Part shown: positions 32,396 to 41,045 of the stretch, piece by piece | Numbering within the stretch: the first letter of the stretch is position 1 | How the letters are laid out: each line of letters opens with the position of its first letter | Assembly (NCBI GenBank): GCA_963833985.1 | Contig: CAWIAD010000001.1 | Span: 928,001 to 992,000, forward strand | Source of the DNA: an uncultured Planctomycetaceae bacterium | GTDB taxonomy: Bacteria; Planctomycetota; Planctomycetia; Isosphaerales; Isosphaeraceae | Length of the DNA: 64,000 bases | Reading direction: 5' to 3' | Made by a program: the position numbers and the translations under genes | Notes under the pieces: generated by a model | Databases searched by the model: none | What the model saw: the letters and a program-made list of their open reading frames with translations, nothing else | What the model was told of the DNA's origin: nothing

Positions 32396-33781
32396 TCAGC
32401 GCCGCCCGCGTGCCGCCTGTTCGCGCACCACGTTGCGGTAATGCTGTTTCGCCAGGATCTCGAACAGGTCGTCCTTCGCACCGGGCTGCGTCAGGTCCTG
32501 GCCTTTCTTCACGACGCCTATGTAGCCCACGCACATCTCGTCGGTCACTTCAGGTCCGGCCGTGACGAGCTTCGGGGGGTTGTGCGGGTTGCGTGCGTGC
32601 GCGGAGTTGTCGTAGTGTGCAACGATCTTGACGATCGACCCCTTGGGGAGCTGGACCCGCTTCTCGAAATAGTAAGTGTTCTGCCAGTTCGGGTCCCAGT
32701 CGTCGATGTGCAAAAGGTCCTGGCTGCCTCCGCCGGGGTAGCGTACCGTCATCCGAAAGTCGCGGCCAAGCTGATGCATGTGCGGCGTCACGGCCAGGGC
32801 CTCAAGGTCCGCCGGCACGTTCCATGTGGCCTTCACCTCGATGTTCGACTCGCCCGGAGGCAGCCGGAACCTGTCATTGGTGGCGTTCGCCCAGTGCAGC
32901 GTCTGCTGCACCGGCTGCTTGCAGAAGTAGATGCCCAGCCGCGTGCGGTCGACCTCCGGCTTGCCGCTGGGATGGTAGTGAACCTGCAAGAGGACGTCGG
33001 AACGAGCGGGAACCTGGCGCCCGACGCCTTGAGGCAACAGATGCGGGACATTGCCCGCCGCCCAGCCGCCCAGGTCACCCTCGACCTCGACCCCCGCGCC
33101 GGCATATGAGGTGTACCCGGGCCCCGGCTCGGCGTCATCGCGCTCCCGGCCCGCGCCACTGGTGTCCAGGAAAGCCATGATGTGGTGCACCACGCGGCGA
33201 TTGCCCGGCAGGTACTCGACGGCCGAGATGGACGCGTCGCGGCGGAGCTTCGTGGGAATCACGAAGCAGCGGTACAGATCCGGCCCACTCGCCGGAACCT
33301 GAAAGTCCTCGGTCATCTCGAGCACCAGGTCCGGCGTGCCCAGGGTCCATCCCTCGCGAAAGACAACCGGTGCGGGGCTGTCCTTCTCTTCGCCCCGCGG
33401 CGCGCCCGCCTCGGCCCACGCATGGAACTGGGCCAGCGCTTCCTTGGTCAGGGTCGGATCATGCTTCAGCTTCGGGCCGCCGCCGGCCACCGGCTTCCAG
33501 GGAGGCATCGAGCGGTCGCCCGCCACCGCTGCAATGTCGAAGGCCCGTTTCCGTGCCTGCTCGTACGAATCCAGCGCGAACGGCCCGACGTGATCGCGCC
33601 GGTGGCAATTCTGGCAGCTTCTCTGGAGGATCGGCAGAATATCCCTGGTGTACGTGGGCCGCGTGCTCTTTTGCGGGGGCTCCGCGCCCCGAACGACCGC
33701 CCCGAGAATCATCGAGAGGACCAGCGCATCACGAACAGTCCAGGCGGGCCACCGGGCCCCCTGGGTGGGTCGAAGCCTCAT
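32396..33781 (-). CDS. Copper type II ascorbate-dependent monooxygenase-like protein with an N-terminal c-type heme motif
   Basis: CQNCH; MPPW; YRCFV; VVHH; LQVHYH; PHMH; WDPNWQ; DEMC. Confidence 0.8.
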   Translation of the reverse strand: MRLRPTQGARWPAWTVRDALVLSMILGAVVRGAEPPQKSTRPTYTRDILPILQRSCQNCHRRDHVGPFALDSYEQARKRAFDIAAVAGDRSMPPWKPVAGGGPKLKHDPTLTKEALAQFHAWAEAGAPRGEEKDSPAPVVFREGWTLGTPDLVLEMTEDFQVPASGPDLYRCFVIPTKLRRDASISAVEYLPGNRRVVHHIMAFLDTSGAGRERDDAEPGPGYTSYAGAGVEVEGDLGGWAAGNVPHLLPQGVGRQVPARSDVLLQVHYHPSGKPEVDRTRLGIYFCKQPVQQTLHWANATNDRFRLPPGESNIEVKATWNVPADLEALAVTPHMHQLGRDFRMTVRYPGGGSQDLLHIDDWDPNWQNTYYFEKRVQLPKGSIVKIVAHYDNSAHARNPHNPPKLVTAGPEVTDEMCVGYIGVVKKGQDLTQPGAKDDLFEILAKQHYRNVVREQAARGRR

Positions 33782-34214
33782 GCGTGTTGTGTCCTTTTTG
33801 GGAAGAATGCGCTGCAAATCAAGGCGGGTGAATCAAGGCACTTCCGGAATGGCGGAGCACTCCGGAGCTTCCAGAATTCCTGACAACATGACCCCCACGA
33901 CAGGCCTGGCACGCGAGAACGGTGCGATCAAAGCACGCCCGCATGGGGACACTACCCAGAAGGTCGCGGCCCGCGGCGCAGAATGCGGCCCGAGTACAGA
34001 TCGAACGAATGTCGTGAGATCGTTGAGAGAAACCTATGGAATGAACAGAATGTATCAACAGGTCAATGCGGAAACAAGCCCTGACCCGAGTTTTTTCGTT
34101 TTTTTCATTGTACCGACGGCCGCTCACTCGGGATCATGAATGCAGGGCGAGCCCTGCGATCATGGGCGCACTCGCCTCGACCGCTGAACCTTCCATACGC
34201 CAAGGACCTTGCTG

Positions 34215-35231
34215 ATGCCCCTCAGCCTGGAAACGGCCGAGTATGAGTTCCTCGTGAGCCCGCTATCGTCCCGCCAGGAGATCCCCGCCGAACCGCCCTC
34301 GAGTGCGGTCAAGGTGCACTTCGGAGCCGTCTCCGACCCCGGCCGGGTCCGGTCGCGAAACGAGGATCACTACATGGTGGCCCGGGTGCGCCGGACCCTG
34401 AACGTGCTGGCCCATAACTTGCCCAAGGAAGAAATGCCCGATTTCCTGGGAGAGGACGGCTACGCCATGGTGGTCGCCGACGGCATGGGAGGCATGAACG
34501 CTGGCGACGTCGCCAGCATGCTGGCCATCAGCACCGGGGTCAAGCTCGCCGACAAGTCGGTGAAGTGGGGCTTCAAGATCAACGAGAAGGAAGCCCGTGA
34601 GCTGCTCGCGCGCATGGGTGCGTACTTCAAGGAGATCGATCGGCGGATCACCCGCAAGAGCGAGAGCGACCGCAGGCTCTTCGGCATGGGGACGACCTTG
34701 ACGCTTGCCTACAGCGTCGGCATCCACCTGTTCCTCATCCACGTCGGGGACTCGCGCGCCTACCTCTTTCGCCAGGGCCAGCTCGAGCAGTTGACTCGCG
34801 ACCATACCGTTGCCCAGGCTCTGGCCGACGCGGGCGACATCAAGCAGCAGGACGTGCGCAAACACCAGCGGCGGAATACCCTGACCAATTACCTGGGCGG
34901 CCACTCCGGCAAGGTCAAGGCCGACGTGCGCTGGCTCCAGCTCGAGGACGGCGACCGGGTCATTCTGTGCAGCGACGGCCTCAGCGACATGGTCGAGGAT
35001 CCGGACATCACCGCATGCCTCCGCGTCCATCCCGAGGCCGATGCCGCCTCCCTGGCCTTGACCCGGCGTGCCCTGGAAAACGGCGGCAAGGACAACGTCA
35101 CGGTGGTGGTGGCCAATTACTCGATCCCGGAACCGTCCCTGTCGCCTCCCCCGGCCTCGGAAACCGCCGAGTACTCAGATCAAAGGCGGATCGACTCCAC
35201 CACCGACTTCCCACGACCCGAGGGGCTGTAG
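34215..35231 (+). CDS. PP2C/PPM-family Ser/Thr protein phosphatase
   Basis: GRVRSRNED; VADGMGG; MGTT; HVGDSRAY; LTRDH; LCSDGL; GGKDNVT. Confidence 0.93.
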   Translation: MPLSLETAEYEFLVSPLSSRQEIPAEPPSSAVKVHFGAVSDPGRVRSRNEDHYMVARVRRTLNVLAHNLPKEEMPDFLGEDGYAMVVADGMGGMNAGDVASMLAISTGVKLADKSVKWGFKINEKEARELLARMGAYFKEIDRRITRKSESDRRLFGMGTTLTLAYSVGIHLFLIHVGDSRAYLFRQGQLEQLTRDHTVAQALADAGDIKQQDVRKHQRRNTLTNYLGGHSGKVKADVRWLQLEDGDRVILCSDGLSDMVEDPDITACLRVHPEADAASLALTRRALENGGKDNVTVVVANYSIPEPSLSPPPASETAEYSDQRRIDSTTDFPRPEGL

Positions 35232-35721
35232 GAGCCCCTACGCGTCCTCGAGGACGAAGCAGACCGGATATCTCGGTTCCAGTTGGTGCTGTGCATGCGG
35301 ATTCGTCTGGGAAGACAGGGGCCACGAGCAGGGCCAGGTGACCCGGCCAGGGCTTCTCGCAGGAGTCGCGAGTAATCCCTTGCAATGGCAGCGATGTCTG
35401 CTTAGTCTCGGATAGCATCCAGTACTGGTGTCGCTGTTCGGCTCGGTCCCTGGGTGTGATCGGGGACGGTAGAGGCCAGTTGGCTGTTGCGGTCTGGCTC
35501 CCGAGGGCAATTCGCTGATGACGACAGAACGAGTTCTGCGCAGCACGGCAATGAAATGCTCTGCATCCCCATTTCACGGTTTTTCTGGTCATGGTTCGAG
35601 TGCGCAGCGGATTGAGTGCCGGACGCCGGAGCAGTGGGGTGCCGGTTGGACTTCAGAGTTCGCACCGGTCCACGAACGAATTCATTACGGCCCGCAAGTG
35701 ACCACTTCCGGAGGCACGACA

Positions 35722-35970
35722 GTGGCCATCGACAAGGAAAAACTGAACCAGATTCGGCGCGAGGCAGAGAAGATCAAGGAGGCAGGATCGGCCGTGGCCC
35801 AGAACATGTTGACGCTCTGGGCCGCGCAGCTCGATATAGCCCTTGCCATTGAGGACGAAGAAACGATCAAGCGAATCATCTCGCAGCCGACACTGAGTCC
35901 TGCTTTCTATGACAACCACGGCTGCGACTGCCGTCCACTCCCAAACGGAGCGGGTTCGCAGTGTTGGTGA
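35722..35970 (+). CDS. Putative RiPP precursor peptide (82 aa)
   Basis: GGAGG at 35710-35714 then GTG; charged helical leader; core PAFYDNHGCDCRPLPNGAGSQCW; directly upstream of a radical SAM/SPASM gene. Confidence 0.7.
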   Translation: MAIDKEKLNQIRREAEKIKEAGSAVAQNMLTLWAAQLDIALAIEDEETIKRIISQPTLSPAFYDNHGCDCRPLPNGAGSQCW

Positions 35971-36221
35971 GAAGGCTTGCCCGCTGAATGCCCTTTTTCG
36001 ATGTTTGACATCCCTCACCCGTTGTGTCAACTCTTCGGGGCGCAGCGGGATGCGGAACGAACCAAGGATTCCTCCAGCGGCCAGCATCTCCACTCACATC
36101 AAGTCGACCATTCACCTGGCCCGAGGATGCGCGCTCCCACATTCTCCACGGTGGGCCTTCTCGCTTTCGGTACTGGGACCCGATTCGATCTCTCAGGAAT
36201 GAGTCGTCGGAGGATCGCGTC

Positions 36222-37580
36222 ATGGGCTCGCAAGAAGGTTGGGTGCTTTCGCGCTTTAACTTGTGGACGAGCGCGACGGATGGAGGGCTGTTGATCTACA
36301 ACAGTCTTACCGGTGCTCTGCTGCAATTACGGAATGCCGAGGCTGAGATTGTCGCCGATTTGAAGGAACACAATGGCCTTGTCGTCGAGCCAAGCGGTGT
36401 TCTCGCTGTCTTGATAACGCAGGGAATTCTTGTCCCAAGCACGTGCGACGAACTTCGCCGCGCCAGGTTGCTGCACGAATCGCGCTTCCACCAGCGCGAT
36501 CAGCTCCACCTGATCCTCATGCCAACGGAGCAGTGCAATTTCCGTTGCGTGTACTGTTATGAAGACTTCAAGCTAGGCCGTATGTCACCGGGAGTCATTG
36601 ATTCGATTGTCAATCTCGTGCGAAGGAGAGCCGTCGATCTTCGTTGCTTTTCGGTGAGTTGGTTTGGCGGCGAACCGCTCATTGCCGCCGACATTGTCGA
36701 GAGCTTGTCAAACCGCCTGATCGCGATTTGCTCCGAGGCAGGCGTCGAATACTCGGCGAGCATGACCACGAACGGGTACCTGTTGAATCCTGAGCGGGCA
36801 GAGATGTGTCGCTCCGCGCGGATCTCCAAGTTCCAGATCACGCTCGACGGCGTTCCGGAATCGCACAACCGGCAGAGGCTGCTTGCAGGCGGCGGAGACA
36901 CTTTTGACACCATCCTTTCCAACCTTCGCCTGCTCCGTGATCGCACTGATGAATTTCGCGTCAGAGTCCGAGTCAACTTCGCTCCGAATGGGATACGGCA
37001 TATGCCCACGTTCTTGAGCTCGCTTGCCGACGACTTCGGTGGGGACCCCCGTTTCCACGTCTTTTTTCGGCCGGTTGGTCGATGGGGGGGTGAACATGAC
37101 CACAATCTTTCGATCTGCGACCGATCATCGGGCGAGAACCACGAGATCGAGTTTACCGAGCTTGCAGCGAACGCCGGCTTCCCTCTGGAAGCCCTGCGCG
37201 AGGCGATGAAGCCGTTCGGCAGCACCTGCTATGCCGCCAACCCGAATTCTTTCGTCATCGGATCAGATGGGAGCGTCTACAAGTGCACGGTCGCTTTCCG
37301 GGACCCTCGCAACCGCATCGGTCAGATTGCGCTCGATGGATCGCTCAATATTGACGAGAGCCTTCATTCTCTCTGGATCTCGTCGGGTGAAGAGGTCGAT
37401 CAGGGCTGCCAGCAATGCGCTTTCAGGCCTGCCTGTCAAGGCAACCACTGTCCCCTGAACAGGCTCATCAGCAACGGTGAGAAGACCTGCCCCAGCATCA
37501 AGACACACATTGACGCTTACCTTCCTGTCGTGGCCTCCGCCACCCTCCGGTCCCTTCCTATCGTCAGCGTGGGTGGCTAG
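36222..37580 (+). CDS. Radical SAM/SPASM peptide maturase with a putative N-terminal RRE
   Basis: GGAGGA RBS; CNFRCVYC; WFGGEP; TTNGYLL; QITLDG; SPASM C-x17-C...CxxCx5Cx4Cx12C; N-terminal SRFN...LLIYNSLTGALLQL resembles a PqqD/RRE. Confidence 0.92.
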   Translation: MGSQEGWVLSRFNLWTSATDGGLLIYNSLTGALLQLRNAEAEIVADLKEHNGLVVEPSGVLAVLITQGILVPSTCDELRRARLLHESRFHQRDQLHLILMPTEQCNFRCVYCYEDFKLGRMSPGVIDSIVNLVRRRAVDLRCFSVSWFGGEPLIAADIVESLSNRLIAICSEAGVEYSASMTTNGYLLNPERAEMCRSARISKFQITLDGVPESHNRQRLLAGGGDTFDTILSNLRLLRDRTDEFRVRVRVNFAPNGIRHMPTFLSSLADDFGGDPRFHVFFRPVGRWGGEHDHNLSICDRSSGENHEIEFTELAANAGFPLEALREAMKPFGSTCYAANPNSFVIGSDGSVYKCTVAFRDPRNRIGQIALDGSLNIDESLHSLWISSGEEVDQGCQQCAFRPACQGNHCPLNRLISNGEKTCPSIKTHIDAYLPVVASATLRSLPIVSVGG

Positions 37581-37863
37581 ATTCCACAGATGCATCCCGA
37601 AGGTCGGCAACGCGGCTCATGGCGTTTCTGTCTGGAGGACCTCGCCTGACAAGCTGCTTCACTCAGGCCTTCCCCTCGCCCGCGGAACTACACATTCGGC
37701 CCAAATCAGCAGCTCCATCGAAGACAGGCCTTCGGAAGAAACGACCACGCTCTTGCCCGGCCAACGCGCGGTGCCGAAACGCCTCGCTTCAATGCATGTT
37801 ACAAGTCTGCCGCAACCTACCTGACCCCTGCTTCCAAGCCAGTCCACCATCGAGGCTCGACCT

Positions 37864-39929
37864 ATGCTCGCAAGACGGCTCGCAGAGGCCCTGGGAGACG
37901 TGGCGGAAGCGGCCGGGATCCGGGACGACGGAACGGAGGTGGCATACGAGTCGGAGCAACTGTTGAGCGAACCGCTCGCCTGGTTTCTCTGCCATCCGAA
38001 CTGGCCATCGGGCTTGGCATCCGAAAATGTCCCCATCGAACTATCGATATCCATGGGAGGCGACGGTACGCCCTGGCTCAGGTATTCGGTCGACTGTGCT
38101 GATCATCGCATGGGCCTCGGCGGCAACTGGCCGCGGTACCTGCGTGAAGCCACTCGTCTTGCGTCTGGGGTTGGTGTCCCACCTTCCGTTGTATGGCAGC
38201 TTCTGGCAAGTGTCCTGGACGGTTCGCCGCCGCTCGATCGATCGCGGCTCTACCATGGAGTCGGGTACGCCGGAGGTGGCGCGAAGAGAGTCTCACTTTA
38301 CTTCAGTACGGCGTGGCTCACATATCCCAACTTCAGAGAGCGATTTCCAGACCTCGTCGAACCTGTAGGTCAGGCAATTGACCGCTGGGGTAGTCCCAGG
38401 CCCCTTTGTTTCGATGGCCTCGCCTATGACCTCACGGGTCAAGAGCCGGCTCATCGAACCAAGTTGTACCAGTGGCTTGGTTGTGATGTGCCTTCGCCTC
38501 TGAATGAACTTGCCGGACGACATCCCGACCTGGTGGCTGCTGGTGTTCTATTCAACCATTATTTCTCATCGAACCCGCCTCATACCCTCAGCAGATCCCT
38601 CCTGCTGCAATGGAGTCTCCTGCCGCCCCGTATGTCCTGCAACCAAAAACTCTTCTTTGAATGCACTCGATGGGGCTGGGGCAATCCGCGGGCATACCGC
38701 GAACTACTTTCGTTACTGAACAACCGCTTCGGAATGAATCTCGGACCTCTCTACGCGATGATCGCGGTCTTCGCGAATTATAAGATCTTGATCAGACCAA
38801 CTTTCCTCGCCATCGGCCCTGGACCAGCCCATCCCTCAATCACTTTCTACTTCCGTCCCGTTCTTGCAGAACCGCTTCGGTCGGCTTCGACGTCGATGGT
38901 CATGGGTCCCATGCCAGACTCTTTCGCCAGGAATCCCGTCGGGTTGCTCGAACACATGACAAGGACCGCCACTGATTTCTTGCTCAGGGAGAAAAGAAGC
39001 GATGACTACTGGATGGATTTCGCACTACCTATTGGCCCATCGGATGCGTGGGTGACTGCATACATAACTGCCATCCTGTCCAGGATGAGCGGCCTGCACG
39101 TCGAACTCGATCGACCCGCCCGGATTCTGAGAACCTGGTTTCGACCCAATCTCGGTTGGGGTGAAAACGGCAACGCTCCCACTGACGCGGACTCGACGGC
39201 ACTCGCCCTGCTGACATTGAAACGGCTGGACCGGCCAATTCCCGATGGGGCTAGTGACATTCTCATGCGATACCGTCTGCACAAAGGAGGTTATTGTCAT
39301 GATTTAAATTCGGATGTGGACGATGAGCACGGGACTGGCGCGCCCGAAATCACCGGCATCGCTCTGCTCGCCATGCTTGAAATCGGCCTGGCAGACTCGG
39401 CTGTCATCAATGGCTGTGTCGAAAATGTGCTCGCTTTACAGCACCGGAGGGCGGGTGGAACGCATTCTGGTGGAAGGATGACCTCTTCGCAACTTGCCGG
39501 ATCTTGCATGCGCTGAATGCCTATTTGCGGTCCCACCAAGCACGAAGTGCGTGGCTTGAAACGCCGGAATACTCTCTTCTGCAATCCGCGAGCCGCGCAG
39601 TGGAAACGGCTCGCCTCGCTTGTATCTCCGCACAGGCCGTGTCTGATGAACCGCTGAGTCTCGGTCTCTGGCTCAGCAGTTGGGTGGCCGCCGGCGGGAG
39701 CCCTCATTACCACAGCATCGGTCGAATGCTCAGTCGTTTGAACTCAGAACAGCAAACCGACGGACGTTGGCTTGCGTCACCAAGTCGGCGAATCGCGGGA
39801 ACTATGCTCAACCGTCCCTGGGCAAGGTCGGACTCAGGCCGATTGTATCTCGATACGCGCTGTCTTGTGACGACAGCGACAGTGCTGGACGGCCTGTGGT
39901 CGCTTCTTCTGGCCCTGAAAGAGGCATGA
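37864..39929 (+). CDS. Fusion of a DMATS/ABBA-like aromatic prenyltransferase and a class II terpene cyclase-like (QW-repeat) domain, ~688 aa; frameshift near 39444
   Basis: N-half: PIELSIS...LRYSVD, YHGV...VSLYF, LAYDL...RTKLY. C-half: FLLREKRSDDYW, SDAWVTAY, GWGENGNAPTDADSTALAL, LQH(P)EGGWNAFWW after restoring one C, EQQTDGRW. Confidence 0.7.
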
Positions 39930-40568
39930 GCCAATCAATCAAGTATAGGATTCGGCCAAGCTCGCATACCCAATCCCCGGCGATTCTCTTAAGTTCGCGC
40001 GGCAGCCTGGTCGAGCCCACTGCCCGATTTGTTCGTCGCTGAATGCGGGCGGCCGATCCGGCCATTTCGCGAAGTGCGAAAGTGACAGCCGTTGTCATCC
40101 GTCACGGGGGCGTTCCTGGCTGCCGGCTTTGCAAGCGGGTCGTCGCCGATTACCTCGCTGCCGCAGAAGTCATGTCCCGGCTGCATCGCTTCGCGTGAAC
40201 CGAGTCCGATTCCTTCAGCCAACCTTGCCCCGTGCGCTCCGCGCTGGTCAAGCCTCTTGGTGCTGCGGCTCGGCAAGCTCCTTACACGCCATCGATGGCG
40301 TTTTGGCAGCGAATCTCATGAAGAGATGAGCCAGAGGCGTGCGCAGCAGCACCAGGAGCTGGGCCGTCGGCGGGAACGGTGGCGTGAGCCTGGAAGGATT
40401 GCCGCGGTGCCTGTCTCCGCCAGCCGGAAAATGAAACGGCCCTGCTGCTCCTGGTATTATTCTTGCGGCGCTGATCCGCCTTGTGCGAGGTTCTGGGGGC
40501 ACAGGGCCGGCGTCCTGGAGCCGGTTCCCGCCTCGCTCGAAACCACATCCCTTCTGGAGAGGCCGATC

Positions 40569-41045
40569 ATGCAACCCGATATCGCCGAAACTCTCGTTGA
40601 GGACTTCGAACGCGGCCGTCTGACGCGCCGTCAGCTTGCGTCAAGGCTCATGGGCCTGGGAGCAGCCCTGGCTGCACTGCCTGACGAGGTCCGGGCCGAG
40701 CCGATTGAAGGCACCATGTTCGAGGCGACCGGACTGAACCACGTCGCCCTGAACGTCCGCAGCGTGTCCCGCTCTCGCGAGTTCTACATCAAGCACCTCG
40801 GGTTGAAGGTCATCCGCGACGGTGGCGAGGACAACTGTTTTCTGGGCGCTGGGAGTGACTTCTGCTTGACGCTCTTCAAGGGCGACCAGCCAGGTTTGAA
40901 CCATTACTGCTACACCATCAAGAGCTACAGCGTCGATCAGGCCGAGGAGAAGCTGAAGGCGGCCGGACTGAAGCCGCGACGCGAAGGAAATCGAATCTAC
41001 TTCCCGGACCCTGACGGCATCGAGGTCCAGGTCGCCGGAGCGTGA
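40569..41045 (+). CDS. VOC/glyoxalase family protein with a Tat-like N-terminus
   Basis: GGAGAGG RBS; LTRRQL; LNHVAL; SREFY...LGL; LNHYCY; IYFPDPDGIEVQ. Confidence 0.85.
   Translation: MQPDIAETLVEDFERGRLTRRQLASRLMGLGAALAALPDEVRAEPIEGTMFEATGLNHVALNVRSVSRSREFYIKHLGLKVIRDGGEDNCFLGAGSDFCLTLFKGDQPGLNHYCYTIKSYSVDQAEEKLKAAGLKPRREGNRIYFPDPDGIEVQVAGA

Follow-up and report, generated by a model that had tools for sequence, protein, structure and literature searches.

A three-gene peptide cassette of atypical composition

The window analysed here is a 64,000-nucleotide stretch from an uncultured Planctomycetaceae bacterium (contig CAWIAD010000001.1, positions 928,001 to 992,000). Between its positions 35722 and 39929 lie three genes on the + strand, encoding an 82-residue peptide, a radical S-adenosylmethionine (SAM) enzyme with a SPASM domain, and a two-domain protein of prenyl chemistry whose gene is interrupted by a single frameshift. 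An earlier reading made from the letters of the sequence alone (the sequence-only reading) had proposed this block as a candidate system for a ribosomally synthesised and post-translationally modified peptide (RiPP), describing three co-oriented genes with ribosome binding sites and an atypical composition. These features are found as stated. The cassette has a G+C content of 57.9%, compared to 65.1% for the remaining window, and each gene is preceded by a Shine-Dalgarno-like sequence: GGAGG 7 nt ahead of the precursor GTG (35710 to 35714, + strand, read directly from the sequence), GGAGGA 7 nt before the radical SAM start codon, and GAGG 8 nt upstream of the ATG of the two-domain gene at 37864. 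The corresponding cassette in another Planctomycetota metagenome-assembled genome (locus L001) has a G+C content of 59.5% between flanks of 63.8% and 66.3%. The window locus is probably a three-gene RiPP cassette gained by horizontal acquisition.

The precursor peptide belongs to a conserved family

The precursor gene (35722 to 35970, + strand) starts with GTG at 35722, and its 82-residue product combines the leader motif LWAAQLDIALA with the C-terminal core AFYDNHGCDCRPLPNGAGSQCW. A profile built from five precursors defines a family of 33 clusters, with lengths of 43–153 residues. Invariant columns are found both in the leader (Leu32, Trp33, Ala35, Leu37, Asp38 and Ala40) and in the core (Asp64 and Cys68), with Pro56, Tyr63, Asn65 and Cys66 nearly invariant. 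Past the leader motif, all 33 members contain a Tyr as well as a CxC motif, and the exact sequence YDNCxC is present in 29. Trp occurs in the same region in 22 members and is absent from the other 11; it is the final residue in 21. The window precursor is slightly atypical in that it contains two additional residues (YDNHGCDC), and Trp is its last residue. The ratio of nonsynonymous to synonymous substitution rates (dN/dS) between the window precursor and its L001 copy is 0.28. Hence, the short open reading frame (ORF) with a Cys/aromatic C-terminal core picked out by the sequence-only reading proves to be a conserved gene. None of the Pfam and NCBIfam models covers the family.

The radical SAM/SPASM enzyme resembles maturases of Cys-rich peptides

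The second gene (36222 to 37580, + strand) encodes a radical SAM/SPASM maturase of 452 residues, as identified by Pfam, NCBIfam and homologue alignment. The ORF extends from 36024 to 37580, and the start was set at the ATG at 36222 (MGSQEGWVLSRFN...) by alignment with three homologues. The Pfam Radical_SAM model matches at 9.6e-19. The CxxxCxxC motif (C105/C109/C112) and the Cys residues of the SPASM region (C336, C355, C396, C399, C405, C410 and C423) are invariant in all four aligned sequences, bearing out the earlier description of a CxxxCxxC enzyme with a seven-Cys SPASM region in all ten positions.

The best NCBIfam models for this enzyme are those of Cys-rich-peptide maturases (TIGR04463, Clo7bot, CefB, geopeptide and PapB, ranging from 1e-65 to 1e-32), while the cyclophane-forming families YhhB and AmcB match at 1e-14. 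The top model, TIGR04463 (rSAM_vs_C_rich, 1.5e-65), scores 221.7 bits against a cut-off of 525, followed by Clo7bot (177.6 against 600), CefB (157.9 against 600) and PapB (111.3 against 340). As these scores are far under every curated cut-off, the enzyme is a member of none of these four families. The closest solved sequence is 5wgg (2.5e-20), which we take to be the thioether-forming maturase CteB. What the window enzyme shares with 5wgg and the four families is the CxxxCxxC motif, a seven-Cys SPASM region, alignment along the full length of the models and a Cys-containing core as the putative substrate. The sequence-only reading also described an RRE-like N-terminus, an RRE being a PqqD-like leader-binding domain. 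Approximately 90 residues precede the radical SAM core, and the NCBIfam RiPP-maturase models align from their position 1, whereas a Pfam search with residues 1–93 found no family. The window and L001 enzymes are 77% identical, with a dN/dS of 0.16. A predicted complex of enzyme and precursor reached a best score of 0.28 against a mark of 0.32, with controls not folded, and counts neither way.

An ABBA prenyltransferase fused to a class II terpene cyclase

The ORF of the third gene runs from 37864 to 39516, and the coding sequence continues to 39929 in the next frame. The shift lies at a CC run (39444 to 39445, + strand), where comparison with homologues indicates that one extra base is required. 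Word-index and exhaustive searches yielded a family of 810 representatives at E ≤ 1e-3, 59 of these at E ≤ 1e-30. Many are 620–720 residues in length and span the frameshift point, and many others, of 300–340 residues, correspond to the N-domain alone. Both domains are present on one intact polypeptide in L001 (686 residues) and in six further full-length homologues. Look-alike fusion clusters of ~680 residues in the Atlas come chiefly from Actinomycetota and Pseudomonadota.

An AlphaFold model of the N-terminal P domain (fusion residues 1–340; 37864 to 38883, + strand), based on a 73-row alignment, has a pLDDT of 94.4 and displays the ten-strand alpha-beta-beta-alpha (ABBA) pattern. Foldseek places the 5-DMATS structure 6zs0 first (E 8e-13, TM 0.75), followed by PriB, CymD, IptA, TleC and MpnD, and a sequence profile detects 6zrz (5-DMATS) among the PDB sequences at 1.4e-7. 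Residues invariant in the P family, Glu59 (P-x-E-L-S), Arg73, Lys200-x-Tyr202 and Tyr329, align with the matching 5-DMATS residues, at positions that are presumably the catalytic and diphosphate-binding sites of DMATS enzymes. The ten-stranded ABBA barrel, the Glu of the P-x-E-x-S motif and the Arg/Lys/Tyr ladder are thus common to the window domain and 5-DMATS (6zs0/6zrz), PriB, CymD, IptA, TleC and MpnD. The bacterial DMATS-type enzymes are 16–20% identical to the window P domain, and use free Trp or small indoles with C5 donors. Judged from the model, the N-domain is a DMATS-type ABBA prenyltransferase fold.

The linker and the start of the C domain (38884 to 39445, + strand) include a DxD motif within NAPTDADSTALALL, and the remaining C domain follows in the next frame (39447 to 39929, + strand; EGGWNAFWWKDDLFATCRIL up to the stop). 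The model of the 337-residue C domain, built on the unbroken L001 sequence, has a pLDDT of 95.4. The best Foldseek matches are the single-domain class II cyclases 8pak, 8paj, 6ij1 ('Prenylcyclase') and MstE, with TM values of 0.74–0.77, and the C-domain family profile matches the same proteins at 1.5e-67 to 1.5e-53. All share a single beta-type alpha/alpha toroid of ~330 residues and the DxD, which reads DADST in the window and DADTT in MstE (merosterolic acid synthase, 6sbb). In a motif-level alignment, DADSTA of the C domain (PTDADSTA) is placed opposite DADTTG of MstE, for which the account in PMC12324236 gives the acid motif as DxD in place of DxDD. Some fusion relatives contain DAE where others have DAD, including a 37% identical fusion from a Heimdallarchaeota genome (L002, 8864 to 11550), where the acid motif is DAETTA instead of DADSTA. 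MstE is free-standing and acts on a prenylated dihydroxybenzoate, whereas the window domain is part of a prenyltransferase fusion, and its substrate is presumably a chain bound to the peptide. The model indicates that the C-domain is an MstE-type single-domain class II terpene cyclase. With both folds matched to solved structures at pLDDT values of 94–95, the two-domain prenyl-chemistry enzyme of the sequence-only reading is confirmed at the level of fold. Two other identities for the C domain, the beta-subunit of a protein prenyltransferase and a LanC-like toroid, were considered and dropped, as the top 40 Foldseek matches are all terpene cyclases and the C-domain profile reaches MstE-type cyclases at 1e-53 or better.

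Intact homologues read LQ(R/H)PEGGWNAFWW across the frameshift point. The shifted tail of the window copy is 79.5% identical to that of L001, has a dN/dS of 0.13, and runs without interruption through 182 codons to the homologous stop, suggesting that the break is either very recent or an assembly error.

The trio recurs in unrelated genomic surroundings

An orthologue of the radical SAM enzyme is found in four loci (the window, L111, L001 and L023), and in all four the prenyl enzyme lies directly after the peptide-radical SAM pair. L001 encodes an 80-residue peptide, a radical SAM enzyme (77% identical to that of the window, as given above) and the intact 686-residue fusion, with wholly different flanks. 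Overall, its identity to the window cassette ranges from 66 to 77%, with 70% for the P domain, and all cassette parts are under purifying selection between the two copies (dN/dS 0.13–0.38). L023, a low-G+C metagenome contig, contains two precursor genes of 46 residues each, a radical SAM enzyme with 52% identity and a 700-residue fusion with 38% identity. Neither of its precursor copies contains a Trp after the leader, and the fusion is present. The window genome itself (10.16 Mb in two contigs) holds a paralogous cluster, L111, on its other contig, where a precursor ending VDFYDNCDCGGTVGTQCW and a radical SAM enzyme are accompanied by a 348-residue ABBA prenyltransferase that stands alone, without a cyclase. 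Three polyprenyl synthases are encoded elsewhere in this genome.

Among 401 sampled Planctomycetota genomes, the P domain and the orthologous radical SAM enzyme were each found in the window genome only. Other radical SAM matches in these genomes range from E 1e-42 to 1e-79, whereas the two copies of the window genome itself match at 1e-240 or better. The sequence-only reading had suggested that conservation of the gene neighbourhood be checked; the trio does recur in L001 and L023, in the same order and between unrelated flanks. As far as sequence comparison can tell, the three genes are a conserved functional unit with a genuine precursor family.

The more distant relatives of the radical SAM enzyme in Acidobacteriota (E ~1e-122) adjoin Cys-rich short ORFs, with no prenyl enzyme within ~8 kb. 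At one such locus (L124, 7687 to 9441, - strand), a radical SAM enzyme that matches the family profile at E 1e-123 is followed by a 117-codon ORF, which carries the leader motif of the window family (LWNARLDALIA) ahead of a differing Cys-rich core, CGCGGGSPICGCDC, again with no prenyl enzyme within ~8 kb.

The paralogous cluster on contig 2 (L111, 1243000–1260000; 4881 to 15086) comprises a larger gene set than the window cassette. A PhyH-type dioxygenase is encoded upstream, and a second radical SAM/SPASM enzyme (515 residues) and then a B12-binding radical SAM protein (592-residue ORF) are encoded downstream of the prenyltransferase. The locus also holds an 871-residue protein with a UDP-glucose dehydrogenase-like N-terminal half. 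On another metagenome contig (L065, 563 to 3980), a short ORF (...DPCIVLVVWRF) is accompanied by a radical SAM/SPASM enzyme, a stand-alone MstE-like cyclase (DCDST) and a 3'-open ORF containing the stretch DALFDEE; the arrangement resembles a trans-IDS-type prenyl/cyclase RiPP cluster in split form that has its own radical SAM enzyme. In two Paracoccus genomes (L003, 8124 to 10909, and L013), a long ORF has a distant ABBA-like domain at its end and overlaps the first part of a separate MstE-like cyclase gene. No radical SAM enzyme or obvious precursor lies nearby, and this may be a small-molecule meroterpenoid pair. A general partnership of MstE-like cyclases with radical SAM enzymes is not supported, as it occurs at 3 of 106 loci, and at 1 of 32 when only loci with 3 kb or more on each side are counted.

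The spacers inside the window cassette measure 251 nt (35971 to 36221) and 283 nt (37581 to 37863), compared to 48 and 68 nt in L001. No conserved short ORF or RNA family was found in either window spacer, and Rfam has no match across the window. In local scans, promoter and terminator counts are at shuffle level, and repeats around the cassette are limited to short pairs at chance level. The neighbours of the cassette encode a protein resembling copper type II monooxygenases that weakly matches cytochrome c (32396 to 33817, - strand), a PP2C phosphatase (34209 to 35231, + strand) and a glyoxalase-fold protein (40092 to 41045, + strand). None of these flanking genes is kept beside the L001 cassette.

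Relation to known terpene-cyclised peptides

The sequence-only reading did not recognise the enzyme combination as a described class, a view that is not supported in the light of NctPC. As described in a 2026 review (PMC13290415), NctPC unites an ABBA-fold prenyltransferase with an MstE-like cyclase in a fusion that attaches geranylgeranyl to a Trp of a peptide and cyclises it, and ChrPC is its trans-IDS-like counterpart; the review credits both to Hubrich et al., Chem 2024. The product name steromaze appears in PMC13647313. According to PMC12715784, Chekan and Piel report lanthipeptide macrocyclisation before prenylation, and this report appears to be the Hubrich et al. 2024 paper. Both the architecture of the enzyme and the concept of a terpene-cyclised RiPP have therefore been known since 2024.

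Compared by the review description, NctPC and the window fusion both combine an N-terminal ABBA prenyltransferase with a C-terminal MstE-like cyclase in one polypeptide beside a ribosomal precursor. The window system differs in its radical SAM/SPASM partner and in the uncatalogued LWxAxLDxA/YDNCxC precursor family. Furthermore, neither L023 core contains Trp, the acceptor that the review gives for NctPC, and 11 of the 33 precursor-family members lack it; the hosts of window-type fusions are Planctomycetota and Asgard archaea. ChrPC, ComQ and PalQ are alike in prenylating ribosomal peptides with C10–C20 donors, as the review presents them, and ChrPC also has a fused cyclase; their P domain adopts the all-alpha isoprenoid-synthase fold, not the ABBA fold of the window fusion. 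Our literature search found no description of the radical SAM pairing, the YDNCxC precursor family or the Trp-free cores, though the 2024 paper may include such clusters in its supplement.

Proposed pathway and alternative explanations

We consider it likely that the locus is a RiPP cassette in which the peptide is cross-linked by the radical SAM/SPASM enzyme, then prenylated and possibly cyclised by the fusion. The product envisaged by the sequence-only reading, a peptide modified by a radical SAM enzyme and bearing an isoprenoid that may be cyclised, thus remains the best reading. The gene content, folds, motifs and conservation of cassette and precursor are observed; from these we infer every chemical step below, along with the step order, donor and acceptor. 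A helical precursor leader with the invariant LWxAxLDxA would be recognised by the radical SAM/SPASM enzyme, which would install at least one cross-link within the Y-D-N-(x0-2)-C-x-C core. A thioether joining a Cys sulfur to a carbon of a neighbouring Asn or Asp would be the most likely link, favoured because the best NCBIfam models are those of Cys-rich-peptide maturases and 5wgg is the closest solved sequence. Precedents for such thioethers exist at N-x-x-C and C-x3-D spacings.

The ABBA domain would then move a polyprenyl group onto an aromatic core side chain, with a likely C15–C20 donor supplied in trans by one of the three genomic polyprenyl synthases. The MstE-like domain would protonate the terminal double bond via the DxD aspartate and cyclise the chain. 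Long-prenyl transfer by the P domain and cyclisation by the C domain are expected by analogy with NctPC. The acceptor may be the family-wide Tyr or, in the window copy, the C-terminal Trp. Trp has the precedent of NctPC; however, the L023 cores without Trp keep the fusion, which would point to the invariant Tyr. If the frameshift is real, the window fusion would prenylate without cyclising, matching the cyclase-free paralogue on the other contig. A more far-reaching version, which we hold to be less likely than not, is that the product is a cyclic-terpene peptide linked through the Tyr of a radical SAM-cross-linked YDNCxC core and not through Trp, made by an unreported type of pathway that extends to Asgard archaea, with one genome producing both cyclised and linear tails on sister peptides.

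Several observations weigh against the proposed pathway. The Heimdallarchaeota genome (L002) encodes no radical SAM enzyme of the window kind at E ≤ 1e-30, hence the fusion does not need such an enzyme, and the 79-residue ORF just upstream of the archaeal fusion ends PMWGSP, with no Cys and no leader motif. A related radical SAM enzyme lies within 6 kb of only 3 of 106 MstE-like-domain loci. The L023 cores are Trp-free, while the characterised relatives named in PMC13290415 are described there as acting on Trp. The Pfam model Trp_DMAT (PF11991) scores the window protein at 13.8 bits (E 0.038), under its 25-bit cut-off. It matches weakly in all eight close relatives examined (best 1.7e-5), and its cut-off is passed by a few more distant relatives, P0128 (29.3 bits), P0064 (31.0 bits) and P0065 (31.2 bits). 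An ORF and family scan of the window cassette revealed no protease or exporter gene, and the cluster may be decaying in the window genome, given that the fusion is frameshifted. Finally, the genomic-context comparison covers five of the 33 precursor clusters and a minority of the 59 close fusion relatives. Taken with the Acidobacteriota relatives, the archaeal locus and the 3 of 106 count suggest that the leader motif travels with the radical SAM enzyme. The simplest reading of these sequence comparisons is that the prenyl enzyme is a module gained in one branch.

The same archaeal fusion lacking a radical SAM partner could be taken to mean that the window cassette juxtaposes two unrelated systems, an ordinary cross-linked RiPP and a small-molecule meroterpenoid (e.g. 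a derivative of free Trp or Tyr that is prenylated and cyclised). For both domains, the nearest relatives of solved structure (5-DMATS, PriB, CymD and MstE) do act on small molecules, and the Paracoccus pairs of an ABBA-like domain and a separate MstE-like cyclase occur without a radical SAM enzyme or obvious precursor. We nevertheless regard this as improbable: the prenyl enzyme directly follows the peptide-radical SAM pair in all four radical SAM-orthologue loci despite their differing flanks, the archaeal fusion also has a short ORF immediately upstream, and the characterised fusion of the same architecture, NctPC, modifies a peptide as described in PMC13290415. The nature of the cross-link is a separate matter, since Y63, D64 and N65 are conserved as strongly as the Cys residues. 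The triceptide rule places a cyclophane on an aromatic-x-x motif. Together with the YhhB and AmcB matches and the terminal Trp of 21 of the 33 precursors, this conservation would fit a RiPP with non-thioether chemistry, in which a Tyr-Asp-Asn three-residue cyclophane or other C-C/C-O link is formed, the Cys pair is engaged in a disulfide or metal site, and the prenyl group is attached to the terminal Trp. Such a product seems unlikely to us, as the Cys-peptide maturase models match far better (1e-65 to 1e-32, compared to 1e-14), the distant radical SAM relatives pair with Cys-rich cores without the YDN triplet, and the L023 cores lacking Trp retain the fusion.

Another explanation takes the frameshift as real; the cassette would then be a dying remnant with a dead cyclase and no mature product, and the contig-2 paralogue would be the working pathway. 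The frameshift at 39444 to 39445, the longer spacers (251 and 283 nt, compared to 48 and 68 nt in L001) and the presence of an intact paralogous cluster on the other contig are all consistent with decay. However, the precursor, radical SAM enzyme and P domain are all intact, and the conserved, open tail suggests that the frame was broken very recently or that the break is an assembly artefact. The assembly itself, 10.16 Mb in two contigs, is a further consideration against decay; few-contig assemblies of such size are usually built from long reads. A remnant is thus a real but doubtful possibility, and a cross-linked, prenylated peptide is the product that we favour for this cassette.

Implications

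Terpene-cyclised ribosomal peptides were reported only in 2024, and few have been characterised. The window locus would represent a compact three-gene version, in which the gene for a putative radical SAM cross-linker lies ahead of that for the prenyltransferase-cyclase, and its YDNCxC precursor family is tightly conserved yet outside any database model. The loci described here provide a set of natural experiments: a single genome with one cyclase-bearing and one cyclase-free paralogue, cores with and without Trp served by the same enzyme, and archaeal copies without a radical SAM enzyme. With these, both the acceptor rule and the order in which the steps occur can be put to a direct test. Use of Tyr as the acceptor, if borne out, would broaden the chemistry known for peptide lipidation. 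Should the Tyr-linked reading be true, the archaeal fusion relatives (L002 and P0008, the latter with the source label Hodarchaeota) would furthermore extend terpene-decorated ribosomal peptides to the archaea.

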